Shown here: in pieces, positions 6,707 to 43,417 of the stretch | Layout: every line of letters starts with the position of its first letter | Numbering within the stretch: the first letter of the stretch is position 1 | Source: Candidatus Methylomirabilota bacterium | GTDB taxonomy: Bacteria; Methylomirabilota; Methylomirabilia; Rokubacteriales; CSP1-6 | NCBI GenBank assembly: GCA_046726415.1 | Contig: JBKPAK010000127.1 | Span: forward strand, 1-52,584 | Reading direction: 5' to 3' | Length of the DNA stretch: 52,584 nucleotides | The notes under the pieces: generated by a model | Database searches by the model: none | Told to the model about the DNA's origin: nothing | The model's input: the letters and a program-made list of their open reading frames with translations, nothing else | Translations under genes and position numbers: made by a program

Positions 6707-6712
6707 TGCCTT

Positions 6713-7735: not shown

Positions 7736-7737
7736 CC

Positions 7738-10487: not shown

Positions 10488-10488
10488 G

Positions 10489-27174: not shown

Positions 27175-28536
27175 ATGGCCGGCGAGCACATCCTGATCGT
27201 CGACGACGAACACGCGATCCAGACTTCCCTGCGGGGCGTCCTGGAGGACGAAGGTTACCGGGTCACTGCGGTAGGCACCGGGGTCGATGCCGTGCGCATG
27301 CTCGCCGAGGAGCTTCCCGATCTCATCTTCCTGGACATCTGGATGCCGGGGATCGACGGCCTCGAGGCGCTGGGCGAGATCAAACGCCTGCAGCCGGAGG
27401 CCACCGTCATCATGATCTCGGGTCATGCCACCATCGACACGGCGGTGAAGGCTACCCGGCTCGGCGCCTACGACTTCATCGAGAAGCCGCTCTCCCTCGA
27501 AAAGGTGCTGCTCGCCGTCAGCCATGCGCTGGAGCACGCGCGGCTGGCGCACGAGAACGCGGCCCTGCGCGCGCGGCTTGATCGACGACTCGAGATCACC
27601 GGCGACAGTCCCGTGTTCCGCGCCCTCCGCGAGCAGATCGCGCTGGCCGCCCCCACGATGGGACGCGTGCTCATCCACGGCGAGAACGGCAGCGGCAAGG
27701 AGCTGGTGGCCCGCGCCATCCATGCCCTCTCCGCTCGAGCCGACCAGTCGTTCGTGGAGGTGAACTGCGCCGCCATCCCCGAGGAGCTGATCGAGTCCGA
27801 GCTATTCGGGCACGAGCGGGGTGCCTTCACGGGCGCGCTGGCCCGCCGTCGCGGGCGCTTCGAGCTGGCCGACGGCGGAACGCTGTTCCTCGACGAGGTG
27901 GGCGACATGAGCCTGAAGACCCAAGCCAAGGTTCTGCGCGCTCTGGAGGAGCAGTCGTTCGAACGCATCGGGGGCAAGGACACCGTCAAGGTCGATGTGC
28001 GGGTCATCGCCGCATCGAATCGCGATCTCTCCGCGCTCATCGCGGAGGGCCGATTCCGGGAAGATCTCTACTATCGGCTCAACGTGATTCCCATCGAGGT
28101 CCCGCCGCTCCGCAGCCGGCGGGAGGATATCCCGCTGCTGATCGATCACTTCCTCGAGCTGTTCTGCGCGGAGAACGGCAAGCGGCTCAAGCGGGTCTCC
28201 GTGGAGGCGCTGGCCTACTTCGTCGGGTACGACTGGCCGGGCAACGTGCGCGAGCTTCGCAACATGGTGGAGCGTCTGGTCATCATGGCTCCCGGCGCGG
28301 TCATTGCGCCCGACGACCTCCCGGCACCGCTCCGCCCCCGATCGGATGCGCCCCTTGCCCCCGACGGGCGCGAGAAAACACTCAAGGAGGCCCGCGACAA
28401 TTTCGAGCGCGCCTACATCCTGGCCGAGCTGCGGGCCCACGACTGGAACATGACCCGCACGGCCGAGCGGTTGGGCATCGAGCGCAGCCACCTCTACCGG
28501 AAAGTCAAAGCCCACAAGATCGCACCGCCGAAGTGA
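27175..28536 (+). CDS. ntrX: NtrX-like sigma54-dependent response regulator
   Basis: Receiver LDIWMP; GENGSGKE; intact GAFTGA; LFLDE; WPGNVRELRN; Fis-type HTH. Confidence 0.92.
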   Translation: MAGEHILIVDDEHAIQTSLRGVLEDEGYRVTAVGTGVDAVRMLAEELPDLIFLDIWMPGIDGLEALGEIKRLQPEATVIMISGHATIDTAVKATRLGAYDFIEKPLSLEKVLLAVSHALEHARLAHENAALRARLDRRLEITGDSPVFRALREQIALAAPTMGRVLIHGENGSGKELVARAIHALSARADQSFVEVNCAAIPEELIESELFGHERGAFTGALARRRGRFELADGGTLFLDEVGDMSLKTQAKVLRALEEQSFERIGGKDTVKVDVRVIAASNRDLSALIAEGRFREDLYYRLNVIPIEVPPLRSRREDIPLLIDHFLELFCAENGKRLKRVSVEALAYFVGYDWPGNVRELRNMVERLVIMAPGAVIAPDDLPAPLRPRSDAPLAPDGREKTLKEARDNFERAYILAELRAHDWNMTRTAERLGIERSHLYRKVKAHKIAPPK

Positions 28537-30068
28537 CGCGGACCATCGTCCGGCGCAGCTCCTATCACGACTCCGTCGCCCTCTTGCGTGCGTCGCGCGA
28601 GATGGAGGCCGTGCTCGGCGTCCACCGCGCCGCGGCCATCATGGGCACGCCGCAGAATCTGGCTCTCTTGCGCGAGGCCGGCCTGCTCAGCACCGAGGCG
28701 GAGAGCGCGGGTCCCACCGACCTCGTGATGGCCGTGCTCGCCGACGACGCCGCGGCAGCCGAAGCGGCGACGGCGGCGGCAGAGGCTGTCCTGGCTGGCC
28801 CCGTCCGAACGGCCGGGATGCTCGACACGCGACCTCGATCCCTGCCTACCGCGCTTCGGATGCTGCCCGGCGCCACCCTGGCCCTCATCTCCGTGCCCGG
28901 AACCCACGCGGGACGAGAAGCACGGAAGGCCCTCCAGGCCGGACTCCACGTCATGCTCTTCAGTGACAACGTTCCCGTGAACGTGGAGATCGCCCTCAAA
29001 CACCTGGCCCGGGACTGCGGGCTCTTTCTCATGGGACCGGACTGCGGCAGCGCCATCATCGACGGCGTGCCGCTCGGCTTCGCCAATGCCGTCCCGCGCG
29101 GACGCATCGGCATTGCCGCCGCCTCGGGCACGGGGCTCCAGGAGGTGACGTGTCTGATCGCGGCCGCGGGCGAGGGCATCTCACACGCGATTGGGGTGGG
29201 CGGGCGAGATCTCTCGCCCGCCGTGGGGGGCCTGATGATGGACGCGGCCCTGGAGGCGCTGGCCGAGGATCCGCGAACCGAAGTCATCTGCGTCGTGGGC
29301 AAACCCGCGGATCCATCGGTGGTTGCGCGGCTGGGTGCCCAGGCGACGCGAACCGGCAAGCCGTGTGCGGCCTATCTTTCCGGTGCCGCCGAAGCAAGCT
29401 CGCCCAGCCTCGGATGGCATTGCGCGGCCACCCTGGAGGATGCCGCTCAAGCCGCGGTCGCCCTCGCGCGCGGCGGACCCCCGGTCACCGTGGAGTTCGG
29501 CCAACCGACCGAGACGATCCGACGGCTCGCGGACGACGCGATCGCCAGGCTGGCCAAGGAGCAGCGCTTCGTCCGGGGCATCTATACCGGGGGTACGCTC
29601 GCCTGGGAAGCCTGCGGCATCCTCGCGTCCCGACTGAGGGACGTGACGCCGGATGTGGGGGGCGGAGGTCGTGGGCATCGCGTGGTCGACCTCGGCGAGG
29701 ACATGTTCACCGTCGGGCGGCCGCATCCCATGCTCGATGGAAGCGTGCGGCGGGAATGGATCGCGCGCGAGGGCCACGATGCCGCTACCGCCGTGTTGTT
29801 GCTCGACGTGGTGCTCGGCTACGGCGCCCACCGCGATCCTGTCGGCGAGATCCTGCCGGCCGTGCGCCGAGTCCGCGAGGAGCGCCGCGCGCGGGGCGAG
29901 GATCTCGTGGTGGTGGCGAGCGTATGCGGGACGGACGCCGATCCGCAGAACCGCACCGCGCAGGTCCTGGCTCTCGAGTCCAGTGGGGTCATCGTCATGC
30001 TCTCGAACGCCCGAGCCGCCCGCTTCGCCGCGCTCGTCGCCGCCCGGCTGGCTGAGCGCGGGCCCTGA
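28533..30068 (+). CDS. fdrA: FdrA (AllF) succinyl-CoA-ligase-like subunit of the oxamate carbamoyltransferase complex
   Basis: YHDSV; MGTPQN; ISVPG; FSDNV; MGPDCG; SGTGLQE; GGRDLS; GRPHPM; LDVVLGYG. Confidence 0.9.
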   Translation: MTRTIVRRSSYHDSVALLRASREMEAVLGVHRAAAIMGTPQNLALLREAGLLSTEAESAGPTDLVMAVLADDAAAAEAATAAAEAVLAGPVRTAGMLDTRPRSLPTALRMLPGATLALISVPGTHAGREARKALQAGLHVMLFSDNVPVNVEIALKHLARDCGLFLMGPDCGSAIIDGVPLGFANAVPRGRIGIAAASGTGLQEVTCLIAAAGEGISHAIGVGGRDLSPAVGGLMMDAALEALAEDPRTEVICVVGKPADPSVVARLGAQATRTGKPCAAYLSGAAEASSPSLGWHCAATLEDAAQAAVALARGGPPVTVEFGQPTETIRRLADDAIARLAKEQRFVRGIYTGGTLAWEACGILASRLRDVTPDVGGGGRGHRVVDLGEDMFTVGRPHPMLDGSVRREWIAREGHDAATAVLLLDVVLGYGAHRDPVGEILPAVRRVREERRARGEDLVVVASVCGTDADPQNRTAQVLALESSGVIVMLSNARAARFAALVAARLAERGP

Positions 30069-30156
30069 TGGCTCGCCGGCCCCGGTGCGAACGGCTGATC
30101 CCGGATGGTAGGGCCGGCCAATTTCGCGGATGACGATCGTCCGGCCGCCCCCGGTC

Positions 30157-31083
30157 CTAGCGCGAGATGGTGGGCATGACTTCTCGCGCGAACGTTTCGA
30201 GCATGCCGGTCGCGGGGAAGTCGGAGAATCCCAGCATGAGATCGGTGACCCCGGCCGCGGCATAGTCGGCGATCCGCGCCGCCACCGCGCCCGGATCGCC
30301 GGCAAGCACCGTCTCGAGCAGAGGATGCTCCTGCTCCAGGTGGCGTCGGCGGCAGAACTGCCCCAACGCGTCGGCGAGTTGAGCGGGCGATGCCAGCACG
30401 ACGTCCAGTTCGACGGAGCGACGAAAGCCCTCGGCCCGGCGGCCCATGTGCAGCAATGCATTGCGCACGATCATCCAGCGCGCGGCAAAGGCCGACGGCG
30501 TGAGATATGACGCCTCCCAGCCATCGGCGCTGCGCGCGGCGGCGGCCAGCGCTTTCGGACCCATGGCGGCGATCCACACGGGCGGTCCGGGCGTCTGGAC
30601 GGGCGTAGGGACGAGGGTGGCGCCGGCCAGCTGCCAGTGTCGTCCGGTGTAGTCGACGCGCTCACCCGTCCAGAGGGCCCGCGCGACGGCAACGGCCTCC
30701 TCCAGCATGGCCACCCGCGCGCGGCCAGGTGGATAACTGATGCCGTGGCTCGTCCATCCGCGGGCGGTCTCGGCGTCTTCCGCGCCGATGCCCAACCGCA
30801 ACTCGGCCCGCCCGCCCGAGAAATGGTCGAGCGTCGCCGCGCGCTTCGCGAGCCAGGAGGGATGGTGCGCCGCCGGATCGAAGGCGTACGTCACGGCCGG
30901 CCCTAGTCGCGCGCGCCGGGTGAGGGCGGCGAGCGCGCCCAAGGTGGTCCAGCCATCGAGCGTCCAGGCGCCGAGACCGTCGCCATACGCGATGCGCGCG
31001 AAACCGAGATCATCGGCGAGCGTCCAGTACCGGCGCAGCGCAGCCGTGTCGGTCCCCCATGTTTGCACACCGATGTCGACCAC
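30157..31083 (-). CDS. LLM-class (luciferase-like) flavin/F420-dependent oxidoreductase
   Basis: LAKRAATLDHFSGGRAELRLGIG; PVQTPGPPVWIA; ADGW. Confidence 0.85.
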   Translation of the reverse strand: MVDIGVQTWGTDTAALRRYWTLADDLGFARIAYGDGLGAWTLDGWTTLGALAALTRRARLGPAVTYAFDPAAHHPSWLAKRAATLDHFSGGRAELRLGIGAEDAETARGWTSHGISYPPGRARVAMLEEAVAVARALWTGERVDYTGRHWQLAGATLVPTPVQTPGPPVWIAAMGPKALAAAARSADGWEASYLTPSAFAARWMIVRNALLHMGRRAEGFRRSVELDVVLASPAQLADALGQFCRRRHLEQEHPLLETVLAGDPGAVAARIADYAAAGVTDLMLGFSDFPATGMLETFAREVMPTISR

Positions 31084-31086
31084 GGC

Positions 31087-32235
31087 CTACCTCAGGGCCC
31101 GGAAGAAGGCGCGGACGTCGGCCGCGAGCGCGTCCGGCTCTTCCAGCGCGGCGAAGTGGCCGCCGGTCTTCATCTCGGTCCAGCGCCGGATGTCGTAGAC
31201 GCGCTCGGCCCACGCGCGCGGCGGACTGAGAATCTCGCGGGGGAAGGCGGCGTAGCCGGTGGGCACGGCGATGCGGTGCCCGTCAGGGATAGGCCAGCTC
31301 TCGTGGTACCGCGCGTAGTAGGGCCAGAAGGACGAATTGATGGCGCCCGTGACCCAGTAGAGCATGACGTTGGTCAGCAGCGTATCCTTGGAGAAGCGGC
31401 GCTCGACGTCACCGCCGCAGTCGCTCCATGTCCGGAATTTCTCGACGATCCACGCGGCCAGCCCCGCCGGTGAATCGGTGAGCCCGTAGGCCAAGGTCTG
31501 CGGCTTGGTGCCCTGGATCCACTGATAGCCCGTCTCCTCGCGAAGCCAGTGCTGGAGCTGCGCGAGATAGGCCTTCTCCTCGGCGGTCGGCTCTGCCGGC
31601 GCGGTGACGTCGCGCCGCACGGCGAGCAAGTTGACGTGGATCCCGACGAGACGCTCGGGACAGGCCACGCCGAGGCGCGACGTGATGAAGGCGCCCCAGT
31701 CGCCTCCCTGGGCGGCGAAGCGAGCGTAACCGAGCACGTCAGTCATCAGGGTCGCGAAAAGGTCGGCGATCTGCTCCACCCCAAAGCGGGGTTGATTCGG
31801 CTGGAACGAGAACGCGTAGCCGGGCAGCGACGGCGCCACCACGGTGAAGGCGTCGGCGGAATCGCCGCCGAAGCGTCCAGGATTGGTCAGGCGGGGAATG
31901 AGGGCCTCGAATTCCACGATGGAGCCGGGCCAGCCGTGGGAGAGCAGGAGCGGCAGGGGATTCGGTCCAACCCCGGGCTCGTGGATGAAGTGCAGCTCGA
32001 TGCCGCCGAGGGACACAGTGTACTGGCGCAGCCGATTGAGCCGGGCCTCATGCGTTCGCCAGTCATAGCGCTCGCGCCAGAACGCGATCAGCTCCTTCAT
32101 GTAGGCCAGGTCGCTTCCATAACGCCAGGTGGCACCGGGAATCTCGTCGGGCCACCGCACGCGCTCGAGACGGGTTCGCAGATCGAGCAGGACCTCGTCG
32201 GACACGTGGATGGTGAACGGTCGTGGGGTCGTCAT
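31087..32235 (-). CDS. Epoxide hydrolase (EHN plus alpha/beta hydrolase)
   Basis: HGWP oxyanion motif; QGGDWG nucleophile; PQTLAYGLTDSPAG; GGHFAALE; GGGAGG SD. Confidence 0.92.
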   Translation of the reverse strand: MTTPRPFTIHVSDEVLLDLRTRLERVRWPDEIPGATWRYGSDLAYMKELIAFWRERYDWRTHEARLNRLRQYTVSLGGIELHFIHEPGVGPNPLPLLLSHGWPGSIVEFEALIPRLTNPGRFGGDSADAFTVVAPSLPGYAFSFQPNQPRFGVEQIADLFATLMTDVLGYARFAAQGGDWGAFITSRLGVACPERLVGIHVNLLAVRRDVTAPAEPTAEEKAYLAQLQHWLREETGYQWIQGTKPQTLAYGLTDSPAGLAAWIVEKFRTWSDCGGDVERRFSKDTLLTNVMLYWVTGAINSSFWPYYARYHESWPIPDGHRIAVPTGYAAFPREILSPPRAWAERVYDIRRWTEMKTGGHFAALEEPDALAADVRAFFRALR

Positions 32236-32260
32236 GCCGGCTACCTCCCATCGGGCATGA

Positions 32261-33106
32261 TCATTGGGCGAGTTCGACCTCGTCGAGGAATTGCTCCAGC
32301 AGGTTGCCGGCCACGGTGCGGCGATAGCGCGCGGTGGAGCGGATGTCGTCGATGGGGGCGACCTCGTCTTCGAGGATCTCGCGCGCCGCCCGGCGATCGA
32401 TGTCGCCACACCGGCGAGATCCTAAGTACTCCGCGGTGCGGCGCGCTTCCAGGGGCGTCGGCGCCACGCTTCCCAGCGCGATGCGCACGGCCTCGAGTCG
32501 ATCGCCCCGCCCGCGCGCCACGCCGGCGAAGCAGACCTTGCTGATCGCTTGTGCCCGACGGGTCCCCACTTTGCGATAGAAGCCGGGCCCACCGTACTCG
32601 CGCGGAAGGTAGATGCGCGTGATCAGCTCGTCCGCGGCCCGCTGGGTGACCTTGTATCTCAGGTGGAATTCCGCATAGGGCAACCACCGGGATCCCCGCG
32701 TACTGGTCAGTTCGATCCGGGCGCGGTAGACGAGCAGCACCGGCGGCGTGTCGGCGGCGGGCGACGCATTGGCGATGTTCCCGCCCACCGTCCCGCGGTT
32801 CTGCACTGCCCAGGCGCCGCTCACTCGCGCGGCCTGGACCAAGAGGGGATAGCGCTCCTGCACCAGCCGAGAGGCGGCCAGCTCGGTGTAGGTCGTCAGC
32901 GCCCCAAGACTCACACCGTCAGGGGACTCGTCGATGCCTCGCAGCTCGGGCAATGCTCGGATGTCGACGAAGACGCCATCTTCCAGGGAGCCGAGCCGAC
33001 GCAGAACCATCAGATCCGTTCCCCCGGCGAACGGAATGGCCGTTGGCTCGGTGGCCAGGATGGCGAGGGCTTCCTCCAGCCGCTGCGGCGAGCGCCAGGG
33101 GATCAC
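32261..33106 (-). CDS. Xanthine dehydrogenase family FAD-binding subunit
   Basis: AGGTDL; NRGTVGGNIANASPAADT; PIDDIRSTARYR. Confidence 0.9.
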   Translation of the reverse strand: MIPWRSPQRLEEALAILATEPTAIPFAGGTDLMVLRRLGSLEDGVFVDIRALPELRGIDESPDGVSLGALTTYTELAASRLVQERYPLLVQAARVSGAWAVQNRGTVGGNIANASPAADTPPVLLVYRARIELTSTRGSRWLPYAEFHLRYKVTQRAADELITRIYLPREYGGPGFYRKVGTRRAQAISKVCFAGVARGRGDRLEAVRIALGSVAPTPLEARRTAEYLGSRRCGDIDRRAAREILEDEVAPIDDIRSTARYRRTVAGNLLEQFLDEVELAQ

Positions 33107-33166
33107 GTGACGTTGAGGGGCGCGAACGCGCCTCTTCCCCGCCCAGTCAACCCTTCCGCGGCGACT

Positions 33167-33658
33167 TCAGCGCTGCCCACCGCTGACCTCGACCTCGGAG
33201 GCGCCCGCTGAATTCAGGACGGCGCGATAGATGGCCCCGTATCCGGTACAGCGGCACAGGTTGCCGGCCAGCGCCTCGCGCACCTCGTCGAGCGTCGGAT
33301 GGGGGCGGGCAGCGAGCAATGCGTGGGCCGCCAGCACGATTCCCGGCGTGCAGATCCCGCACTGGGCGGCGCCCGCCGCGATCATGGCCTCCTGGATGGG
33401 GCTGAGGCGCGCGCCTTCCGCGTCCTCCAGGCCCTCTACAGTCAGGACGGTCGCCCCGTGCATCTGGCCCATGGGGACGAGGCAACCCAGCGCGAGGGCA
33501 TCATCGACGATGACCGAGCATGATCCGCACTCGCCCTCCCCGCAGCCTTCCTTGGCCCCGGTCAGTCCGCGCTCCTCGCGCAGAAAGTCGAGAAGGCGGA
33601 GGAGCGGATCGACGTCCGCGCTGACGCGCTGACCATTGATGGTCAGGTCGATCCTCAT
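33167..33658 (-). CDS. Xanthine dehydrogenase family 2Fe-2S subunit
   Basis: GAKEGCGEGECGSC; QCGICTPG; GNLCRCTGY. Confidence 0.93.
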   Translation of the reverse strand: MRIDLTINGQRVSADVDPLLRLLDFLREERGLTGAKEGCGEGECGSCSVIVDDALALGCLVPMGQMHGATVLTVEGLEDAEGARLSPIQEAMIAAGAAQCGICTPGIVLAAHALLAARPHPTLDEVREALAGNLCRCTGYGAIYRAVLNSAGASEVEVSGGQR

Positions 33659-35856
33659 TTTTCGACGTCGGGGGCGCGCCGCCCCGCTTCGAGGACGATC
33701 TCCGGCAGGGCTGGGATGGCCGCGATCTCGGCACCGAGCGCCATGTTGATCGCATTGACGATGGCCGGCGCCGTTCCGTCGAGGGGCAACTCGCCGATCC
33801 CCTTGGCGCCGAACGGCCCGCTGGCCAGGGGCACCTCCAGGAAACCGACGTGGATGGGCGGCATGTCCGCGCTCGTCGGGATGATGTAGTTCGTGAGCCG
33901 GGCGTTGGCCATGACGCCTTCGCTCCAGACGACGTGTTCAGAGAGCGCCAGACCAATGCCCTGTGCCACCCCACCCTCGATCTGCCCCCGCGCCAGGACA
34001 GGATGGATCACCCGTCCGACCTCCTGCACGGCGTAGAAGTCAGTGACCTCGGTTTCACCGGTGCGCGTATCCACCGCGACTTCCGCGATATAACAGGCCC
34101 ACGCGTAGCCCGCGTAGGCGTCGCCCACAAAGTTCTTGTCGTCCCAGCTCTGGCCGGCTGGTGGTTGATAGTCAGCCATCGCCACGAGCGGTCCGTGCTC
34201 GGACACGTAGCGGCACGCCCCGGCGCGGAACTCGGCGACCGAGTGCGGACTGGGCAACCCGATACGCGCGCGCAGGATCTCTAGCATGTCGCGCGCCGCG
34301 CGTGCCAGCAGCCCTCCGACCACCATGGCTGTGCGGGAGGCCACGGTGGGCCCGCTATCGGGAACGAGGGTCGTGTCCGGTTGAGCCGTGACGACCATGT
34401 CGTACGGCACGCCGAGAACCTCGCTGACGATTTGCGGATGTGTGGTGGACGCCCCCTGGCCGATCTCGGTACTGGAGGCGAGGATTTCCACCGTCCCGTC
34501 CGAGCGCAGCCGCAGTCCGGCCCGGGAAGCGAGCGTGGTCTCGCCGCTCCCCGTGAAGCCAGCCCCGTGCATGAACGCGGCGAGGCCGATCCCGCGCTTG
34601 AGGTAGCGTGACCGTCTATTGGCGGCGACGCAGGCTACCCGCTTGGCCGTGAAGTCGCTCTGGGCCAACGCCGTATCGAGCACGAGGACGACGTCGACCC
34701 CGGCGTCCACCGGCTGGCCGGTGGCCATGGCATCATCCGGGCCCAGGAGGTTGCGCCGTCTCAGCTCGACCGGATCGAGACCGAGCGCCCTCGCTACGCG
34801 GTCGAGGTGCGTCTCTATGGCGAAGATGCTCTGCGGCGCGCCGAAGCCACGGAACGCCCCATGCGGAGGATAGTTGGTGGCCATGACCCGCCCGGTGATC
34901 CGAACATGCGGCCACCGGTAGGGACCGGGCGCATGGATCAGCGCGCGCGAGAGTACCACCGGGCTGAGGGTGAGATACGCCCCTCCGTCGAGGAGCAGCT
35001 CCGTCTCTAGCGCGATGAGCCGGCCGTCCCGGCTCACGCCCGTCCGGTGCCGGATCCGGGAGGGATGGCGCTTGGTAGTCGCCATCATGTCCTCCATCCG
35101 GTCGTAGATGAGCTTGACGGCACCGCCAGCCTTCTGAGCGAGCAGCGCCGCGTGGCCGGCGATAATCGAGGGATACTCCTCCTTGCCGCCGAAGCCACCG
35201 CCGGTCGTGGTCTGGACGACTTGGACGCGTTCGGGCGGGACGCCCAGCAAGAGAGCCACCGCCGGCTGCACGTAGTAGGGACACTGCAGTGAGCCACGGA
35301 CACAGATGCCGCCGTCAGGACGCGGCTCAGCCAGCATACCCTGGGGCTCGATGTAGACGTGTTCCTGGGCTCCCGTCTCGTAGACGCCCTCGACGACGAA
35401 GTCGGCCTCGGCGAAGCCCGTCTCTACATTGCCCTTCTCGAGGGTCCGCGCGAGGAACTCGGTGCGCGACTGATCAAGGGATAGCACGGGCTCTTCAGGG
35501 GAGATGACCAGCCGGACTCCGCGCACCGCGCGCGCCAGCAGGTGGCGGTCCTCGTGGGCCAGGAGGACGACCGGCTCTTCGCGATGGCGGATCTCTTGTT
35601 CGGCCAGGAACGGCTGCTCGAGGTCGATGAGCTTGACCCGGTTCGTGCCGGGCACGTCTCGCGCGGTCACGACCACGATCTCGTCCCACGGTAGATCAGG
35701 ATCGAACTCGATCCGCTCCAGCCGGCCACGGGCAACGGCCGATCGGACGGTGCGTCCGTGCCGCAGGCCGGGGGGTTGGAGATCGTCGACGTAACGGGCG
35801 AGGCCCCTGACCTTGTCGCGGCCATCCTTGCGGGCAACGCTCGTTCCAACGGCCAT
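33655..35856 (-). CDS. Xanthine dehydrogenase family molybdopterin-binding subunit (PucD-like)
   Basis: GGGFGGKE; AFRGFG; GQG; ASRT; GQIEGG; KGIGE. ATG 35856 lies 6 nt below TACCTT. Confidence 0.92.
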   Translation of the reverse strand: MAVGTSVARKDGRDKVRGLARYVDDLQPPGLRHGRTVRSAVARGRLERIEFDPDLPWDEIVVVTARDVPGTNRVKLIDLEQPFLAEQEIRHREEPVVLLAHEDRHLLARAVRGVRLVISPEEPVLSLDQSRTEFLARTLEKGNVETGFAEADFVVEGVYETGAQEHVYIEPQGMLAEPRPDGGICVRGSLQCPYYVQPAVALLLGVPPERVQVVQTTTGGGFGGKEEYPSIIAGHAALLAQKAGGAVKLIYDRMEDMMATTKRHPSRIRHRTGVSRDGRLIALETELLLDGGAYLTLSPVVLSRALIHAPGPYRWPHVRITGRVMATNYPPHGAFRGFGAPQSIFAIETHLDRVARALGLDPVELRRRNLLGPDDAMATGQPVDAGVDVVLVLDTALAQSDFTAKRVACVAANRRSRYLKRGIGLAAFMHGAGFTGSGETTLASRAGLRLRSDGTVEILASSTEIGQGASTTHPQIVSEVLGVPYDMVVTAQPDTTLVPDSGPTVASRTAMVVGGLLARAARDMLEILRARIGLPSPHSVAEFRAGACRYVSEHGPLVAMADYQPPAGQSWDDKNFVGDAYAGYAWACYIAEVAVDTRTGETEVTDFYAVQEVGRVIHPVLARGQIEGGVAQGIGLALSEHVVWSEGVMANARLTNYIIPTSADMPPIHVGFLEVPLASGPFGAKGIGELPLDGTAPAIVNAINMALGAEIAAIPALPEIVLEAGRRAPDVEK

Positions 35857-35920
35857 CGGATCAAGGTACAGGGCAGGGGCACGAGGCTCAAGAAGCACTC
35901 TCGAGGTGCGAAGGTGGCAG

Positions 35921-35949
35921 TTGACCTGCCCGTCATCTGCCCATAACGT
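35921..35949 (+). promoter_or_regulatory. sigma70 promoter TTGACC-17-TAACGT for the ABC/puuD operon
   Basis: Canonical spacing; predicts a leader of about 145 nt before ATG 36102. Confidence 0.6.
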
Positions 35950-36101
35950 AGGCTCGCCCACACGCGCTGTGCTCGGTGTTTGGGCGTGGCGGCGGCGCCC
36001 AAGCCCCCTAGCCCGCGAAAGAGCTCGCGTGAGGCAGGCACGGCCCTTGCGTGTCGGAGCGCTGCTCGACGTCCGCTCCGCTGTGTCAAGGAGAATTAGG
36101 C

Positions 36102-37130
36102 ATGAAGCTGAACATCCTGCTCACTCGTGCCGCGACCGCGGCCATCTTGGCGGTGCTCGCCGCCGCCACTCCGGCCGCCGCCCAGACGAAGGTGAGGTTC
36201 GTGCTGGACTGGCAGATCCAGGGACCGCAGGCTCCCTTCATCGCTGCCAAGACGTTAGGGGGGTTCGGCGGGGCCGGACTCGACGTCAGCATCGATCGCG
36301 GCACCGGATCGCAGAAGACCATCGAGCAGGTAGCCACCGGCACCTACGACATCGGCTACGGCGACATCAACTCGATGATCGAGTACAACGTGAAAAACCC
36401 GGGCAACCCGCTGGTGGCCGTCTACATGGTCCTGAACACGCCGCCGTTCTCGCTGCTCTCCCTGAAGAAATACGGGGTGAAGCAGCCTAAGGACCTCAAG
36501 GGGCTGAGCATCGGAGCCCCGGCAGGAGACGCGCCCCGCCGGCTCTGGCCACTCTTTGCCCGGAACGTCGGGCTCGCTGCGGACAGCGTGACATGGACCA
36601 ACATGGCCCCTCCCCTGCGCGAGCCCGCCCTCGTCAAGGGTGACGTCAAGGCTATCTCCGGTTTCTACTTCACCGGCTTCCTCAATCTCACCGAGAACCT
36701 CAAGGTGCCCGCGGACGATGTGGTGGCCTTCCGGTACAGCAACTACGGCATCGACCTCTACGGCAACGCGGTGATCGTCCGCGTCGACTGGGTGAGGGCC
36801 AACGCGGAAACTCTCCGGAAGTTCGTGGCCGCCGTCAACACGGGCATGAAGTTCACCTTGAAGGACCCCCAGGCGGCCATCGGTTTCATCAAGGGTGTGG
36901 AGCCCTTGGTGAACGAGGCCACGGAGCTGAAGCGGCTGCAGCTCGCCATTTCATCCAACATGGTGAACGACGAGGTCAAGCGCGATGGCCTGGGTGGCAT
37001 CGATCCCAAGCGCATGCAGCGCGCCATCGACCAGGTCGTGCTGTCGTTCGAATTGCCCTCCAAGCCCTCGGTGGCCCAGGTCTTCAACGGCGAGTTCCTG
37101 CCGTCCGCCGCGGTGCGGAAGCTCCAGTAG
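36102..37130 (+). CDS. ABC substrate-binding protein, NMT1/THI5 family
   Basis: Signal peptide ending AAA; LDW...GP.AP; RGTGS; YGN; AAGGAG SD. Confidence 0.88.
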   Translation: MKLNILLTRAATAAILAVLAAATPAAAQTKVRFVLDWQIQGPQAPFIAAKTLGGFGGAGLDVSIDRGTGSQKTIEQVATGTYDIGYGDINSMIEYNVKNPGNPLVAVYMVLNTPPFSLLSLKKYGVKQPKDLKGLSIGAPAGDAPRRLWPLFARNVGLAADSVTWTNMAPPLREPALVKGDVKAISGFYFTGFLNLTENLKVPADDVVAFRYSNYGIDLYGNAVIVRVDWVRANAETLRKFVAAVNTGMKFTLKDPQAAIGFIKGVEPLVNEATELKRLQLAISSNMVNDEVKRDGLGGIDPKRMQRAIDQVVLSFELPSKPSVAQVFNGEFLPSAAVRKLQ

Positions 37131-37157
37131 CGCGGATCCCCGAGTGCTCGCGGCGAC

Positions 37158-37934
37158 ATGATCGAGCTGGACGGAGTCGCGCTCGACTATGCCGTTCGCG
37201 GGCGTTTCACGCACGCCCTTCAGGACATCACCTTGACGGTGGCCCGCGGCGCCTCGGTGGCGTTCGTGGGACCCAGCGGCTGCGGCAAGTCGACCCTGCT
37301 CAAGCTGATCTCCGGGCTCCTGCCGGCCACCCGCGGCACGGTACGGGTGGCCGGCCGTACCGTCGACGCTCCGCTCAAGAACGTGGGCATGGCCTTCCAG
37401 AACCCGGTCCTCCTGCCCTGGCGCCGGGTGCTCGACAATGTGATGCTGCCCCTGGAGATCCTAAAAGAGAATCGCGAGAGGCTGGCGACCGACCGCGCGG
37501 CCTGGGAGGCGAAGGCCCGCGATCTCCTGCGCACCGTCGGGCTCGACAACGTCGATGACCAGCAACCCCGCGAGTTGTCCGGCGGCATGCGGCAGCGCGT
37601 GAGCCTCTGTCGGGCGCTGATCCACGAGCCGGAGTTTCTGCTGCTCGACGAGCCTTTCGCCGCCCTCGATGCCTTCACGCGCGAGGAGATGTGGGAGCTC
37701 CACCAGACCTTGCGCCAGGGGCGGCAGTTCACCAGTGTGCTGGTGACCCACGACCTCCGCGAGGCCGTGTTCCTGAGCGAGGTCGTGTACGTCCTCTCCA
37801 CCAACCCGGGACGCGTCGCCCACGTGCACGCGGTCGACCTGCCCATTCCGCGGACCTTGACGGACTGTTACGGCCCCATGGGCACGGCCCTCATCGCGAC
37901 CATGCGCGAGCAGATCCGGAGCGCTCGTGGGTGA
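37158..37934 (+). CDS. ABC ATP-binding protein (TauB/SsuB-like)
   Basis: GPSGCGKST; LSGGMRQR; LLLDEPFAALD; VTHD. Confidence 0.93.
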   Translation: MIELDGVALDYAVRGRFTHALQDITLTVARGASVAFVGPSGCGKSTLLKLISGLLPATRGTVRVAGRTVDAPLKNVGMAFQNPVLLPWRRVLDNVMLPLEILKENRERLATDRAAWEAKARDLLRTVGLDNVDDQQPRELSGGMRQRVSLCRALIHEPEFLLLDEPFAALDAFTREEMWELHQTLRQGRQFTSVLVTHDLREAVFLSEVVYVLSTNPGRVAHVHAVDLPIPRTLTDCYGPMGTALIATMREQIRSARG

Positions 37935-37949
37935 CGGCAGGCCACGGCC

Positions 37950-38708
37950 GTGAGTCGCGGGGTGTTCCGACGGGTGGTCCTCCCCACCGCCGCCTTTGTT
38001 CTCATCCTCGTGGTATGGGAGGGGGCTGTCGCTCTTCTCCGCATCCAGCAAATCGTGCTTCCGCGGCCGAGCGCCATCGCCGTCACCATGGTGCAGATGG
38101 CCAAGCCCATCGCCTTCCACGCGAGCCAGACGCTCTTCACCACGCTCGTGGGCTTCGGCGTGGCCGTGGTCCTCGGGCTCCTGCTCGGCTTCGCCATCGG
38201 CGCCTCCCTGATCGTGCACGACGCGCTCTATCCGCTGCTGGTGGGGTTCAACAGCATCCCCAAGGCCGCCGTGGTCCCCCTGCTCGTGATGTGGTTCGGG
38301 GTGGGCACGGTCCCCGCCGTCATCACCGCCTTCCTGCTGGCGTTCTTCCCGGTGGCGGTCAACGTGGCCCTGGGACTGGCCACACTGGAGGCGGAGCTGC
38401 GCGACGTGCTCCGGGCGCTGGGCGCCTCGCCGTGGCAGATCTTCGTGAAGGTGGGCGCTCCCCGCACCATGCCGATGTTCTTCGCATCGCTGAAAGTGGC
38501 CATTTCCTCGGCCTTCGTGGGATCGGTCATTTCGGAGACGGTGGCCGCCAACGCGGGGATTGGCTATCTCATGGCGGTGGCCGCTTCCGACTTCAACACG
38601 CGGCTGGCCTTCTGTGGTCTCTTCGTGCTGGCCGCCATGGGCGTGCTGCTGTATGGATTGTTCGCCGCGGTGGAGCGCCGGGTGACCGGCTGGGCGTACA
38701 CCGAGTAG
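37950..38708 (+). CDS. ABC permease (TauC/SsuC-like)
   Basis: LPRPS; SIPKAA; AFFP; ALGASPWQIF; GIGY; about six TM helices. Confidence 0.9.
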   Translation: MSRGVFRRVVLPTAAFVLILVVWEGAVALLRIQQIVLPRPSAIAVTMVQMAKPIAFHASQTLFTTLVGFGVAVVLGLLLGFAIGASLIVHDALYPLLVGFNSIPKAAVVPLLVMWFGVGTVPAVITAFLLAFFPVAVNVALGLATLEAELRDVLRALGASPWQIFVKVGAPRTMPMFFASLKVAISSAFVGSVISETVAANAGIGYLMAVAASDFNTRLAFCGLFVLAAMGVLLYGLFAAVERRVTGWAYTE

Positions 38709-38725
38709 CGGACGGGAGGTCCTTC

Positions 38726-39916
38726 GTGGAGGCGACCCTTCTCGACTGGCTCAACCTCGCCCTGCGCTGGTTTCACGTGGTGGTGGCCATCGGGTGGATC
38801 GGCGCATCGTTCTACTTCATGTGGGTCGACAGCAACATTACCCCACCGGAGAAGCCGCGTGAGGGCGTCGCGGGGGAGCTGTGGATGGTGCACAGCGGCC
38901 ACTTCTACCAGGTCGAGATGCGCCACCTCCGCCCTGGCGAGATGCCCAAGGTACTGCACTGGTTCAAGTGGGAAGCGGCCCTGACGTGGATCAGTGGCAT
39001 CGCGCTCCTCACCGTCGCGTACTACCTGACCGGCGGCGTGTACCTCGTGGACCCCAGCGTCTCGCGCATCTCCACGGGCGGCGCGGTCGCTCTGTGCGTG
39101 GGGCTGCTCATTCTGTCCTGGGTGGTCTACGATCTGCTCTGGGTCTCGCCCCTGGGCCGCGACCACGCCCGAGCCGCCACAGCCATCTCGTACGCGCTCC
39201 TCCTCGGAGTGGTGATCGCGCTGTGCCGGACGCTCAGCGGGCGGGCGGCCTTCATCCACGTGGGCGCGATGCTGGGGACGATCATGGTGGCCAACGTGTG
39301 GATGCGCATCCTCCCCGCGCAGCGGGAGCTGATCGCCGCCACCGCGCAGGGCCGCACCGCGGACTGGACTCTGTCCGACCGCGCCAAGCGACGTTCAGTT
39401 CACAACAGCTACGTCACCCTGCCGGTCATCTTCATGATGGTCAGCAACCACTACCCGAGCACGTATAGCAACCGGCTGAACTGGTTGATTCTCGCGCTCT
39501 TTATCGTGGTGGGCGTGGGCCTTCGACACCTCATGATCACCCACGAGAAGCACCGACCCGCCGCCTGGGTGCTCGCTCCGGTGGCGGTGTCCGTTGCTGT
39601 TCTGGTCTACCTCACCCTTCCCACCGCTCCGGCCGCCGGCGTCGGAGCGCGCGTTCCGTTCCCGGTAGCCCGACGCATCGTGGAAACCCGGTGCGTCTCC
39701 TGCCACTCAACCACTCCCACCGACGACATCTTTCGCGCGGCGCCCAACGGCGTCGCCTTCGATACGCCCGAGAGCATCCGGCTCCGCGCGGAGACCATCA
39801 AGCAGCGCACGGTCCTGCTGAAGAACATGCCGCTGGCGAACAAGACGGGCATGAGCGAGATCGAGCGCGAGACGCTGGGACGCTGGATCGACCAGGGAGC
39901 TCGGCTTGACCAGTGA
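38726..39916 (+). CDS. puuD: Membrane urate hydroxylase PuuD (DUF989 plus C-terminal cytochrome c)
   Basis: WLNLALRWFHV..IGWIGASFYF; LWMVHSG; LHWFKWEA; GRAAFIHVGAMLGTIMVANV; RSVHNSY.TLPV; SNHYP; CVSCH; MP. GGGAGG SD before the GTG. Confidence 0.9.
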   Translation: MEATLLDWLNLALRWFHVVVAIGWIGASFYFMWVDSNITPPEKPREGVAGELWMVHSGHFYQVEMRHLRPGEMPKVLHWFKWEAALTWISGIALLTVAYYLTGGVYLVDPSVSRISTGGAVALCVGLLILSWVVYDLLWVSPLGRDHARAATAISYALLLGVVIALCRTLSGRAAFIHVGAMLGTIMVANVWMRILPAQRELIAATAQGRTADWTLSDRAKRRSVHNSYVTLPVIFMMVSNHYPSTYSNRLNWLILALFIVVGVGLRHLMITHEKHRPAAWVLAPVAVSVAVLVYLTLPTAPAAGVGARVPFPVARRIVETRCVSCHSTTPTDDIFRAAPNGVAFDTPESIRLRAETIKQRTVLLKNMPLANKTGMSEIERETLGRWIDQGARLDQ

Positions 39917-41381
39917 CCCGGCCCTGCTCCTGACGAGCCCCATGCGCGTCGTGAATATCGGCCTCGCCCTGTTCGCGGAGGAGCTGCAGCGGCTGAACGT
40001 TCCCGTCGTGCACGTCGCCTGGCAACCGCCGGCCGCGGAGCCGGCCACCCTGGCGGCGCTCGAGCGGTTGCAGGCGCGGCATGCGGCCATCGAGACCGCG
40101 AATGCCCGGGCGTTCGATCGTCTGGTCAACGGCGAGCCCTATCTCGTGGACTGTCGCCCCGCCCGCGAGGCGCTCGAGCTACCCGAACACATCGTCTTGC
40201 ACGCGGGGCCTCCCTTGGACTGGAACAGGGCCTGCGAGCCGATGCGGGCCGCCGTGCTGTGCGCCATCCGGTACGAGGGATGGGCCGCCAATGACGATGC
40301 GGCCCGCGATCTCGTGCAGCGCGGAACGGTGCGCCTCGCCCCCGCTCATCACTGGCGCTCGGTCGGGCCGATGACGGGCATGATCACGCCCTCCATGCCC
40401 GTGTTCGTCGTGGAGAACCGCGCGTACGGCAATCGCGCGCACGCCACCATCAACGAGGGGCTGGGCAAGGTGCTGCGCTTCGGCGCCAACGACGACGCGG
40501 TTCTGGCGCGACTGCGCTGGCTGGCGATCGAGGCCGGTCCCCTGCTGGGCGCGGCCCTCCGAGTCTCCCGCGGCATCGACCTGCGCGCGCTCATGGCCCA
40601 GGCACTCCGGATGGGCGACGAGATGCATCAGCGCAACGTGGCGGCCTCGTCATTGCTGGTGCGGGCGCTCATGCCATCCGTCGCCCGCGTCGGCGAAAAG
40701 CATGGCGCCGTGGCGCGGCTGGCCGAGTTCCTGGCCGGCAACGATCAATTCTTCCTCAACGTGGCCATGGCCGCGGGCAAGGCATTGGCCGATCCCGCTG
40801 GTGGTGTCGCCGATTCCACGCTGGTCACGGCCATGGCGCGCAATGGGACCGACTTTGGCATCCGCGTGTCCGGTCTGGGCGACCGCTGGATCATGGCGCC
40901 AGTGACGATGCCCATCGGGATGTACTTCCCCGGGTACAGCGCCGCCGACGCCAACCCCGACATGGGCGACAGCGCCATCGTCGAGACGATCGGACTTGGC
41001 GGCGGGGCCATGGCCGCCTCTTCTGCGGTTGCGCGTTTCGTGGGGGCCGGGGGGATGAGCGAAGCCCTGGCGGCCACGGCGGAGATCGGCGAGATCTGTC
41101 TTGACGGGCATCCGCACTTCAAGATCGCCACCCTCGACGAGCGCGGGGCTCCCGTGGGAATTGACGTGCGCCGCGTGGTCGAGACGGGCATCACGCCGCT
41201 GATCAACACCGGCATCGCTGGGCGCCGCGCAGGGATCGGCCAGATCGGCGCGGGGGTGGTGCGGGCGCCCTTGGCCTGCTTCGCCGAGGCTGTTCACGCG
41301 CTCGCAGGGATGGAGAACCCGTCAGGATGCTCCAGGGACGTGCCCGCGAGAGCAGCGAACGCTGACCCGGCTGCCTCGTAA
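39906..41381 (+). CDS. ylbE: YlbE/DUF1116 (AllG) protein with an N-terminal FdrA-tail module
   Basis: LHAGPP; VGPMTG; NEGLGKVLRFGA; MGDEMHQRN; NDQFFLN; ARNG; DMGDSAI; GITPLINTGIA. Confidence 0.88.
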   Translation: MTSDPALLLTSPMRVVNIGLALFAEELQRLNVPVVHVAWQPPAAEPATLAALERLQARHAAIETANARAFDRLVNGEPYLVDCRPAREALELPEHIVLHAGPPLDWNRACEPMRAAVLCAIRYEGWAANDDAARDLVQRGTVRLAPAHHWRSVGPMTGMITPSMPVFVVENRAYGNRAHATINEGLGKVLRFGANDDAVLARLRWLAIEAGPLLGAALRVSRGIDLRALMAQALRMGDEMHQRNVAASSLLVRALMPSVARVGEKHGAVARLAEFLAGNDQFFLNVAMAAGKALADPAGGVADSTLVTAMARNGTDFGIRVSGLGDRWIMAPVTMPIGMYFPGYSAADANPDMGDSAIVETIGLGGGAMAASSAVARFVGAGGMSEALAATAEIGEICLDGHPHFKIATLDERGAPVGIDVRRVVETGITPLINTGIAGRRAGIGQIGAGVVRAPLACFAEAVHALAGMENPSGCSRDVPARAANADPAAS

Positions 41382-41438
41382 GGCGGCAGTGACCCGGAGG
41401 CCTATTTCCGAAGTGTCAAGATCCCCGAGCCCAATCGC

Positions 41439-41455
41439 CTGGCACGTTTGCTGCT
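41439..41455 (+). promoter_or_regulatory. sigma54 promoter
   Basis: CTGGCACGTTTGCTGCT: TGGCACG at -24 with GG-N10-GC spacing. Confidence 0.65.
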
Positions 41456-41505
41456 GCCACTCCAGCAGGCACGTGCTCACTGGCGCGCCGCCTGATGGAG
41501 GCTGT

Positions 41506-41688
41506 ATGGACAGCTTGTGGAGCGACATCGACGACGACGTCTTGGGCGTACTCGAGACGGAGGGGGCGATGGATCCGGCGGACCTCGGCCGGAAGCTTGG
41601 GGTCTCCGCCGACGCCGCGTCCTCGTGGGTGTGCAACCTCGTGATGCAGGGGAAGGTGCGCATCAAGCTGGTCGAGCTGGTGCCCTGA
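41506..41688 (+). CDS. Small (60 aa) winged-helix-like protein
   Basis: GGAGG SD; MDSLWSDIDDDVLGVLETEGAMDPADLGRKLGVSADAASSWVCNLVMQGKVRI resembles an HTH plus wing. Confidence 0.65.
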   Translation: MDSLWSDIDDDVLGVLETEGAMDPADLGRKLGVSADAASSWVCNLVMQGKVRIKLVELVP

Positions 41689-41807
41689 CACCGCTTCGGG
41701 TCGATCGAATCAGTTCCCTTGGTCCAGATCAGGCGCCGTGTTGGTATCGTGACGCTCGCGTCCGGCCAACGACACCCCCGAAGCGCTCACCGTATACCGG
41801 CGGCGTC

Positions 41808-42235
41808 ATGGCGGACGAGATCGAGATCTGGTTTGAGCGTGGCCTTACCGATGGGCTGCCGGTGGCGCCGCCGACGCGCGAACGCGTGGAGCGCATGCTG
41901 ACCGCCACTTCGCGCGCCGAGCTGGTCGCCCGCGTACCGCCGAACTACGGGCGGAGGCCGTGGAGAAAATCGCGGTCAATGTAGTCTGGCCGGATGCCGA
42001 GCGGCCGGTACGCGACCTCGTCCCCGCCCCCGGACGGTGCCGGCTGAAGGACCTCGTGGAAGGACACCGGGAAGACGAACTGGTGACGAACTTCCCGTCC
42101 ATCGACGACGACATCTTAGTGATGGTGGCCGGCGGCACCGCCGGCCGGTTCTCGGCGGTGATCCCGGGCTGGATGGGGGGGGAGATGGGTTCGCGGCCAG
42201 TCACGCGCGCGATCGCGAACGGGCGAGAGGCCTAG
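41808..42235 (+). pseudogene. Frameshifted, internally deleted remnant of a TDGLP-motif (UGSC-associated) protein
   Basis: Frame 1: GLTDGLPVAPPTRERVERML...VPPNYG. Shifts near 41955 to VEKIAVNV, then jumps to a C-terminal ILVMVAGG.AGRFSAVIPGW..SRPVT. Confidence 0.6.
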
Positions 42236-42247
42236 CTCGCGCCCCGC

Positions 42248-42301
42248 GATTGCGACGGAGTGTGTCGCCCGGCGGGGCGTCACGCACCTCCGTCGGCGAT
42301 C
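42248..42301. terminator. Long GC hairpin between convergent genes
   Basis: CGACGGAG/CTCCGTCG stem with inner CGCCC/GGGCG pairing and an outer GATTGC/GCGATC extension; no U-tract. Confidence 0.45.
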
Positions 42302-42306
42302 AAGTC

Positions 42307-42672
42307 TCAGTTCTTCGGGGCCTCGCTGGTAGGCTCCTTCAGTGCGAGCCCGGTCAGGACCTTTTTGCCATTCTCTTCTCGATAGCTCGCGATCACGATC
42401 GCGCCCTCCACGAGCGCTCCCGGCCTGACGGCGGTGCGGGGCGGCGTCGTGAGTGTCGTGCCGTCCGTGAGTGTGATCTCTGTCCCGGAGGGGTTGATGC
42501 TCTTGACCTGGCCCTCGACCTCCTTCTCCTCTCCCGGCGTCGGCGTTTCTTGGCCTGCACCCGGCGACCTCTGCTCGGCTGGGGGAGTAGCCTGCGTCTG
42601 AGCCCTTGCTTCGGTGACAAAGGTCAACGACGCGGCCACCAGGATCGCTGCGAGCATCGTGAACGCTCCCAT
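42307..42672 (-). CDS. Small exported OB-fold-like protein (DUF5666/DUF1344-like)
   Basis: Signal peptide ending ARA; VEGQVKSIN..ITLTDGT..L.EGA.V..SY.EENGK; GGAGG SD before ATG 42672. Confidence 0.65.
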   Translation of the reverse strand: MGAFTMLAAILVAASLTFVTEARAQTQATPPAEQRSPGAGQETPTPGEEKEVEGQVKSINPSGTEITLTDGTTLTTPPRTAVRPGALVEGAIVIASYREENGKKVLTGLALKEPTSEAPKN

Positions 42673-42728
42673 GCTTTGAACCTCCATTGCTGGTTGGGCG
42701 AAATGGCGACTCGCCGCCCCAGAGAGCC

Positions 42729-42745
42729 AGCAAGCGACCTGCCAG
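42729..42745 (-). promoter_or_regulatory. sigma54 promoter
   Basis: Minus strand CTGGCAGGTCGCTTGCT: TGGCA at -24 and TTGCT at -12, N10 spacing. Confidence 0.65.
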
Positions 42746-42808
42746 CGAGGACCGCTGCATAGGGGGCAGGTCGCTCTTCTGAAACTCCCTCCGTCCTCGG
42801 ACGTGCCG

Positions 42809-43330: not shown

Positions 43331-43417
43331 GGCGCCTCCTCCGAGCCGGGTTGGTCGGGGGCTGGTGTATCATGCGCGCCGCGACGGCGACAAGCCCTTC
43401 CAACGGCGGAGGACGAG

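Follow-up and report, generated by a model that had tools for sequence, protein, structure and literature searches.

A probable genus-specific mosaic of purine-oxidation genes and separated oxamate carbamoyltransferase-type subunit genes in a genome of the order Rokubacteriales

The complete contig JBKPAK010000127.1 (C127; 52,584 bases, hereafter the window) belongs to a soil Candidatus Methylomirabilota genome of the order Rokubacteriales (GCA_046726415.1, hereafter G000; 7.6 Mb in 352 contigs, 98% complete, 4.66% contamination). Between 28.5 and 41.4 kb it contains genes assigned to xanthine dehydrogenase (xdh), the urate oxidase PuuD, and FdrA (AllF) and AllG (YlbE), homologues of two subunits of oxamate carbamoyltransferase. 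This segment is probably a mosaic specific to one genus, composed of a purine-oxidation module, two passenger genes and the pair fdrA and allG, with the rest of the pathway encoded elsewhere in the genome. A sequence-only reading of the window had proposed an undescribed route here from urate to oxalurate or oxamate and carbamoyl phosphate; the genome content fits that flow, but the canonical UraH, UraD and PuuE steps are encoded on another contig, and no new route is involved.

Gene families in the window were assigned with Pfam and NCBIfam profile searches, and every gene named by that reading was recovered at or near its expected position (Table 1). A DUF4390 gene precedes ntrY, ntrX and fdrA on the plus strand; genes for a luciferase-like oxidoreductase (LLM), an epoxide-hydrolase-like enzyme and the FAD, [2Fe-2S] and molybdenum (Mo) subunits of the xdh product lie on the minus strand; genes of an NMT1-type ABC transporter, puuD and allG follow on the plus strand. 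The five minus-strand genes are closely packed, the start of fdrA overlaps the stop of ntrX, and the TTG start of allG overlaps the stop of puuD. The Mo-subunit gene probably starts inside its open reading frame (ORF), because the alignment with XdhB begins only at residue 36. The window contains no genes for 5-hydroxyisourate hydrolase, 2-oxo-4-hydroxy-4-carboxy-5-ureidoimidazoline (OHCU) decarboxylase, allantoinase, YlbF (AllH) or carbamate kinase, as had been noted from its sequence, and all of these are encoded on other contigs of the genome.

The Mo enzyme is, judged by its sequence, a xanthine dehydrogenase (XDH), which would produce urate. The Mo-pterin module, two [2Fe-2S] modules and the FAD module are all present, on three adjoining genes. 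The best PDB match of the Mo subunit was Rhodobacter capsulatus XdhB (1jro_B, E 5e-80); mammalian xanthine oxidoreductases were also among the best solved relatives, and xanthine enzymes ranked above aldehyde oxidases, 4-hydroxybenzoyl-CoA reductase, quinoline oxidoreductase and CO dehydrogenase. The top NCBIfam matches were xanthine dehydrogenases throughout. Residues equivalent to XdhB Q197, E232, R310, F344, F459, T460 and E730 are identical at all seven positions in the phmmer alignment to 1jro_B; the Glu/Arg pair among them distinguishes purine hydroxylases from aldehyde oxidases. The motifs GGKE, VLSRA, FRGFG and GIGE, picked out earlier by eye, are all present and align with catalytic and substrate-binding positions of XdhB. 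The full seven-residue signature was found in one of the 33 large-subunit paralogues of the genome (CoxL/Xdh family, aligned over at least 500 residues), namely in the Mo subunit encoded in the window. The presence of 33 such paralogues in one genome represents a large expansion of Mo-hydroxylases.

Compared with R. capsulatus XdhAB (1jro) and Bacillus subtilis PucCDE (TIGR03196/03198/03199), the enzyme has the same modules and keeps the catalytic and substrate-binding residues; unlike them, it consists of three separate subunits encoded in the order Mo-FeS-FAD, has about 30% identity to the solved enzymes, scores under the equivalog cut-offs and lacks an adjoining xdhC gene. The scores (477 against 784 for pucD, 380 against 850 for xdhB) therefore place it in a divergent clade, outside the named equivalogs. 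These scores, the diverse specificity of the 33 paralogues, the pyrimidine precursors bound by the solved relatives nearest to the transporter binding protein, and the position of the sole XdhC_CoxI gene of the genome on another contig (C180) would fit an enzyme that hydroxylates not xanthine but another N-heterocycle or an aldehyde, imported by the ABC transporter. That alternative is very unlikely, given the complete signature with its Glu/Arg pair, the exclusively xanthine dehydrogenase character of the top PDB and NCBIfam matches, and the occurrence of orthologues within canonical urate/allantoin clusters.

These clusters were found when representative genomes were scanned for orthologues of the Mo subunit; 80 loci were returned, 78 of them outside the genus at 46-56% identity, and their neighbours were scored by tblastn with G000 proteins. 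The clade is widespread; the 78 loci belong to Acidobacteriota, Gemmatimonadota, Sumerlaeota, Planctomycetota, Burkholderiales and other groups. The FAD and [2Fe-2S] subunit genes adjoin the Mo gene in 63 and 73 loci, respectively. Ureide-pathway neighbours occur at 27 of the 78 loci (20/44 when only loci of 15 kb or more are counted), comprising UraH at 24, allantoate amidohydrolase-like proteins at 13, PuuD at seven, PucG-like proteins at five and UraD at four. Two Acidobacteriota loci (L051, L053) have, by Pfam, the order Mo-FeS-FAD-amidohydrolase-allantoicase-(UraD)-UraH-PuuD. Together with the signature residues, the 27 loci support the earlier assignment of the Mo enzyme as a purine hydroxylase. 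Genes fdrA, allG and allH and those for carbamate kinase, the hydrolase and the LLM were found beside XDH orthologues at none of the 78 loci.

PuuD of the window matches PF06181 (DUF989/Urate_ox_N) with 355 bits over profile positions 2-292 of 295, and its C-terminus contains CVSCH at 323-327, Met368 (+41 from the His) and Arg381 (+13 from the Met). Doniselli et al. (PMC4562309) give H344, M385 and R398 as invariants of Agrobacterium fabrum PuuD, and the haem-c invariants of the window protein have identical spacing. With the DUF989 domain and all haem-c invariants kept, it is by its sequence a genuine member of the family and, as first annotated, a urate oxidase that would yield 5-hydroxyisourate.

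Among the 251 genomes compared within the phylum, 21 encode a PuuD (E <= 1e-50), G000 being one of them. Two unpublished genomes (G011, G115) are counted in the genome tallies for fdrA/allG, PuuD, the hydrolase and the LLM only, and also supply two loci among the LLM and PuuD locus counts; no conclusion rests on either. At the 18 Rokubacteria PuuD loci outside the genus, ABC ATPase/permease genes precede puuD in 14 and uraD-uraH follow it immediately in 11; the usual unit of this lineage is therefore ABC importer-puuD-uraD-uraH. Genes uraH and uraD were not found beside puuD in the window. Co-occurrence of puuD with ylbE or fdrA, which the sequence-only reading had proposed as a check, was not seen outside the genus: none of the 18 loci carries allF or allG. 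The DUF989-cytochrome c fusion is common to this PuuD and the A. fabrum PuuD-UraH-UraD system (PMC4562309), and orthologues of the window gene are likewise followed by uraD-uraH. The differences are that puuD of Rokubacteria closes an NMT1-type ABC operon and that in this genus allG takes the place of the departed uraD-uraH.

The NMT1/ThiY-family ABC system is probably an importer of xanthine or urate. Besides its association with puuD, genes for the binding protein (39-41% identity) adjoin XDH orthologues at five loci from metagenome-assembled genomes (MAGs), with the permease (54-56%) at four of the five; four of these loci are labelled Burkholderiales/Betaproteobacteria and one (L104) 'uncultured bacterium'.

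The steps after 5-hydroxyisourate are represented on other contigs. Contig C336 contains puuE (TIGR03212, 486 against a cut-off of 425; its product matches the solved PuuE 3cl6 with 454 bits) and, adjoining it, an aminotransferase gene whose product matches B. subtilis PucG (3isl) with 414 bits and the Klebsiella ureidoglycine-glyoxylate aminotransferase with 381 bits; uraD and uraH, both above NCBIfam cut-offs, are divergent from these two genes. The aminotransferase thus resembles the PucG/HpxJ branch (3isl, 3nnk) and lies beside puuE and uraDH. The same four-gene cluster is present on C7 of another genome of the genus, G002, in which xdh and puuD are on a 925 kb contig, C19. Gene allH is isolated on C85, and the carbamate kinase gene (372 bits against a cut-off of 358) is located on C22, where its neighbours encode a BMP-type ABC transporter and also an amidase. 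Accordingly, the genome-wide search for uraH, uraD, puuE, ylbF (DUF2877), carbamate kinase and xdhC proposed by the sequence-only reading was positive for all six. No genes for uricase, ureidoglycolate lyase or ureidoglycine aminohydrolase were found in the genome; allantoicase (PF03561) also gave no match, a weak test with the control positive in 0/14 control genomes. Pfam detected this family in L051 and L053. The suggestion that the M20 amidohydrolase at 5324 takes part led to an ambiguous result: it passes the cut-off of NF006771 'allantoate amidohydrolase' and is possibly such an enzyme, but among solved structures it is nearer to N-carbamoyl-L-amino-acid hydrolase (3n5f, 268 bits) than to allantoate amidohydrolase (1z2l, 191 bits).

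The pathway roles of PucG and HpxJ are known from B. subtilis and Klebsiella, and in the HPX route of Klebsiella oxalurate is hydrolysed. The likely oxalurate sink in G000 is instead a phosphorolytic AllFGH-type enzyme. A gamma-glutamyltransferase-family gene (C85:6987-8648, L002) is located 1.3 kb from the lone allH; in the PDB its product matches 5hft chains A and B with 200 and 184 bits and 2nlz with 311 bits. We take 5hft to be the oxamate amidohydrolase HpxW, although its record says only gamma-glutamyltranspeptidase; on that assumption, the gene may provide a route from oxamate to oxalate.

The presence of UraH, UraD and PuuE above curated cut-offs bears on the proposal that urate is turned into oxalurate by an undescribed route, with the hydrolase and the LLM standing in for 5-hydroxyisourate hydrolase, OHCU decarboxylase or allantoinase. 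The tight spacing of the Mo, FeS, FAD, hydrolase and LLM genes on one strand and their identical order in G001, a second genome of the genus, speak for such a role. However, hydrolase orthologues (68-83% identity) are far more widespread than PuuD, occurring in 137 of 251 genomes of the phylum and 120 of 158 of the family, and neither xdh nor an LLM or fdrA gene was found within 1.5 kb of them at 27 loci outside the genus. Orthologues of the LLM (55-64% identity; its NCBIfam matches are all under cut-offs) were detected in 36 of the 158 genomes of the family, with no cluster genes within 1.5 kb at 13 loci outside the genus. Both enzymes are absent from the XDH loci of other phyla, and the two genes are separated in G002 by an inserted serine-hydrolase gene. 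Replacement of the canonical enzymes by this pair, as first proposed, is highly improbable. No tie of the hydrolase or the LLM to purines exists except adjacency within one genus, and the two are probably passengers that are co-transcribed with xdh there.

Genes fdrA and allG had been read as separated subunit genes of an oxamate carbamoyltransferase, and this is supported. According to PMC11326118, AllFGH of Escherichia coli is the oxamate carbamoyltransferase and all three genes are required. All subunit families are present in G000 in an unclustered state: FdrA (NF004760, above cut-off), AllG/DUF1116 (PF06545) and AllH/DUF2877 (PF11392, on C85). The genome contains three FdrA paralogues, which score against E. 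coli FdrA (3dmy) with 286 (window copy), 269 and 246 bits; these values are too close to decide orthology, and therefore trees and synteny were used. In the trees, FdrA and AllG of the window fall in a clade with the pairs of sister genera, apart from the pairs on C44 and C300 of G000. The structure model of an FdrA-AllG complex had a score of 0.85, with the best of three controls at 0.00; by a rough calibration, for which own alignments were used, 116 of 157 solved complexes attained this mark, as did two of 215 mismatched pairs. The runs of this two-protein model had at least 94% of contacts in common and a partner pLDDT (predicted local distance difference test) of at least 91. Contact between FdrA and AllG of the window is thus predicted.

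Compared with allFGH-allK of E. coli (PMC11326118), homologues of all four proteins are present in the genome, and sister genera have fdrA-allG-carbamate kinase-(allH) operons; the genes of G000 are instead dispersed over four sites, with fdrA behind ntrX, allG behind puuD, allH on C85 and the carbamate kinase gene on C22. The carbamate kinase gene is not in an operon with fdrA or allG, a link that is present in the orthologous loci of G012, G014 and G015. Oxalurate in G000 would derive from the PucG-type aminotransferase instead of AllD. PMC12625717 describes allFGHK clusters of nitrifier MAGs beside bmpA-nupABC and amidase genes, without upstream purine genes. The surroundings of the G000 carbamate kinase gene are similar, and the paralogous fdrA-allG pairs of G000 are likewise near Bmp or Opp transporter genes; the difference from the nitrifier clusters is that G000 has the entire upstream purine pathway. 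Another paper, PMC4016543, treats a different carbamoyltransferase.

Comparison of gene order revealed conservation within the genus and separation of the units outside it. The entire order of the window is kept in G001, including the puuD-allG overlap, which indicates translational coupling in both genomes. In G002, ntrX is followed directly by the LLM gene and fdrA is absent at this site; the frame of puuD is broken into two, two-component genes occupying 5 kb separate puuD from allG, and allG overlaps a series of genes, LLM2-epimerase-DAO-cycloisomerase. The locus is thus highly plastic within the genus (G002 C19, loci L035, L126). Orthologues of the window pair in other genera of the family have 63-66% (FdrA) and 73-78% (AllG) identity. 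The order DUF4390-ntrY-ntrX-fdrA is common to G001, G010 and G012; it continues directly into allG in G010, and in G012 three unrelated minus-strand genes separate ntrX-fdrA from allG-carbamate kinase. Genome G015 contains fdrA-allG-carbamate kinase (77% identical to that of G000)-fdrA fragment-allH, and G008 and G014 contain allH-fdrA-allG, with carbamate kinase also in G014. Gene puuD is on contigs other than those of fdrA/allG in G012 and G015. The earlier reading was to be refuted by a complete canonical pathway elsewhere together with an unconserved cluster order; the canonical steps are indeed encoded elsewhere, and the order is kept within the genus only.

Since sister genera have these units apart and orthologues occur in other contexts, the segment may be explained most simply by two older, separate units, ntrYX-fdrA-allG(-carbamate kinase-allH) and ABC-puuD-uraDH. 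In this genus a block of about 10 kb (xdh-hydrolase-LLM and ABC-puuD, without uraDH) would have been placed between fdrA and allG of the first unit. This order of events is a parsimony inference.

Genes pyrR and a dihydroorotase-containing ORF were found 3' of fdrA-allG in G010 (L131) and G008 (L132); in these genomes the producer of carbamoyl phosphate thus adjoins pyrimidine-biosynthesis genes that use carbamoyl phosphate. Two more adjacent fdrA-allG pairs of G000 are located in non-purine contexts without allH. They are encoded at C44:3116-10005 and C300:5336-8426 (loci L012, L013). One adjoins genes of a Bmp-type ABC transporter and hydantoinase/caprolactamase-like HyuA/HyuB genes, the other an Opp-type transporter, which suggests that the FdrA/AllG pair has been put to use again on different ureido or lactam substrates.

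The juxtaposition could also be accidental: fdrA and allG would then belong to an NtrYX-linked nitrogen-scavenging unit acting on a carbamoyl or ureido substrate unrelated to urate, or would be decaying, and the purine block would have landed between them. Such an origin agrees with the ntrX-fdrA(-allG) linkage kept in G001, G010 and G012, with the lack of allF and allG at XDH and PuuD loci outside the genus, with the paralogous pairs beside hydantoinase-like and Opp genes, with the pyrimidine genes that follow the pair in G010 and G008, and with G002, where allG is 5 kb from puuD and joined to the LLM2 series and neither fdrA nor carbamate kinase was found. However, the PucG-type enzyme should make oxalurate and other outlets for ureidoglycine or ureidoglycolate were not found, so that an oxalurate sink is needed; orthologues of the pair share operons with allH and the carbamate kinase gene, like allFGHK of E. 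coli, and puuD and allG overlap in G000 and G001. On balance, accidental juxtaposition is an unlikely explanation, though one of some weight.

A route from urate via oxalurate to oxamate and carbamoyl phosphate, encoded genome-wide and built of known enzyme families, is plausible. Xanthine or urate would enter via the ABC importer; XDH would form urate and PuuD 5-hydroxyisourate, which UraH and UraD would convert via OHCU to allantoin, and PuuE would convert allantoin to allantoate. An M20 amidohydrolase, perhaps the one in the window, would then yield ureidoglycine, and the PucG-type aminotransferase would convert this to oxalurate. FdrA/AllG with AllH would split oxalurate with phosphate to oxamate and carbamoyl phosphate, from which carbamate kinase would produce ATP, NH3 and CO2. 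For the last steps we infer that products of the dispersed allFGHK genes continue to cooperate. A hybrid ureide pathway in this full sense, comprising the NMT1/ThiY importer, a PuuD linked to the respiratory chain, UraH/UraD/PuuE/amidohydrolase, the PucG-type enzyme, assembling AllF/AllG/AllH and carbamate kinase, with an importer-puuD-allG operon under sigma-54/NtrYX control, is a tentative proposal, less probable than the mosaic itself. Neither the arrangement nor such a pathway was described in the literature searched (ureidoglycine/oxalurate, Rokubacteria purines, NMT1-XDH, DUF1116/DUF2877/FdrA).

A number of observations weigh against these readings. Besides the scores of the XDH subunits, the remote xdhC gene, the PDB ranking of the M20 amidohydrolase and the additional fdrA-allG pairs in non-purine contexts, the nearest solved relatives of the binding protein, THI5/ThiY, are distant (E 8e-11, PDB search), and therefore no ligand can be inferred from them. 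PucG requires glyoxylate, and no source of it was identified. The carbamate kinase gene of G000 lies at one end of a contig of 17 kb, and the bin is contaminated to 4.66%; the membership of this gene in the genome rests on binning. Since allF and allG are absent from the XDH and PuuD loci outside the genus, co-occurrence does not support a link of these genes to purines. Genome G002 (95% complete) has no fdrA of the window type, its best match being a paralogue with 50% identity; carbamate kinase (E <= 1e-40) was not found in G002, and none was found in G001 either. The puuD frame of G002 is broken as well. In this genus the AllFGHK set may be in decay and have lost its function.

The divergent spacer between xdh and the ABC genes was compared in G000, G001 and G002. 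A sigma-54-like element, AGGCACGGCCCTTGCG (GGCAC-N5-TTGC), is located at 36036-36051 on the plus strand, about 50 bases upstream of the start of the binding-protein gene, and a block of about 35 nt, GTTGACCTGCCCGTCATCTGCCCATAACGTAGGCT, at approximately 35920-35955. Both are conserved in G001 and G002, in a spacer that otherwise diverges. The motif TGGCAC-N5-TTGCW with up to two mismatches has 16 matches in the window against 16.3 expected by chance; the sigma-54-like element is for this reason a lead only, kept by its position and its conservation in the two genomes. The two elements are possible nitrogen-control sites near ntrX, a sigma-54 activator gene. A scan of 27-44 kb for sigma-70 promoters and terminators was uninformative, with no promoters and five terminator-like sites against 5.7 expected.

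Other parts of the window contain a cluster for a caa3-type cytochrome oxidase with CtaG (6632-11319), in which subunit II is fused to cytochrome c and subunits I and III form a fusion of 805 aa; this cytochrome c oxidase could plausibly accept electrons from the haem c of PuuD. Between allG and the LLM2 gene (41381-43400), small minus-strand genes encode DUF1344 (42307-42687) and YjgF/RidA-like (42809-43330) proteins; this gap is missing in G002, where allG and LLM2 overlap. No purine-specific family was found among the DAO, cycloisomerase, epimerase and LLM2 genes 3' of allG.

Table 1. Positions of the genes and of the divergent spacer in the window, with the profile match or other basis of each assignment.
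Feature	Position	Strand	Basis
M20 amidohydrolase	5324-6562	+	NF006771, 418 bits vs cut-off 399
ntrY, two-component sensor	24884-27118	+	Pfam
ntrX, sigma-54 activator	27175-28536	+	Pfam
fdrA/allF homologue, 511 aa	28533-30068	+	NF004760 'acyl-CoA synthetase FdrA', 471 bits vs cut-off 433
LLM, luciferase-like oxidoreductase (F420/FMN class)	30157-31083	-	Bac_luciferase, E 1.8e-45
Epoxide-hydrolase-like alpha/beta hydrolase	ORF 31087-32409, probable start ~32256	-	EHN, E 4e-35
xdh, FAD subunit	32261-33106	-	Pfam FAD_binding_5/CO_deh_flav_C
xdh, [2Fe-2S] subunit	33167-33658	-	Pfam Fer2_2/Fer2
xdh, Mo (molybdopterin) subunit	ORF 33655-35961, probable start 35856	-	Pfam MoCoBD_1/2
Divergent intergenic region xdh/ABC, 245 bases	35857-36101		Spacer comparison G000, G001, G002
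NMT1/ThiY-family binding protein	ORF 36051-37130, start ATG 36102 behind AAGGAG	+	Pfam
ABC ATPase	37158-37934	+	Pfam
ABC permease	37950-38708	+	Pfam
puuD, predicted membrane cytochrome-c urate oxidase, 396 aa	38726-39916	+	Urate_ox_N, E 5e-106; GTG start behind GGGAGG
allG/ylbE homologue, 491 aa	39906-41381	+	PF06545, 296 bits, E 1.7e-88

The locus is best regarded as a rearrangement of purine-catabolic modules that are already known, and it reveals no new chemistry. It illustrates how rearrangement can produce a cluster of hybrid appearance, and that the neighbours of its genes need not fill steps that seem to be missing. The repeated presence of the NMT1-family ABC transporter with puuD-uraDH in Rokubacteria, and with XDH in MAG loci mostly labelled Burkholderiales/Betaproteobacteria, makes it a candidate bacterial importer of urate or xanthine. 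The gene content predicts that purine catabolism ends in the sequence PucG, AllFGH and carbamate kinase, which would unite two known enterobacterial branches. Genes of a multi-subunit enzyme that are scattered in one genus and operonic in sister genera offer a natural test of whether the break-up of an operon precedes gene loss.

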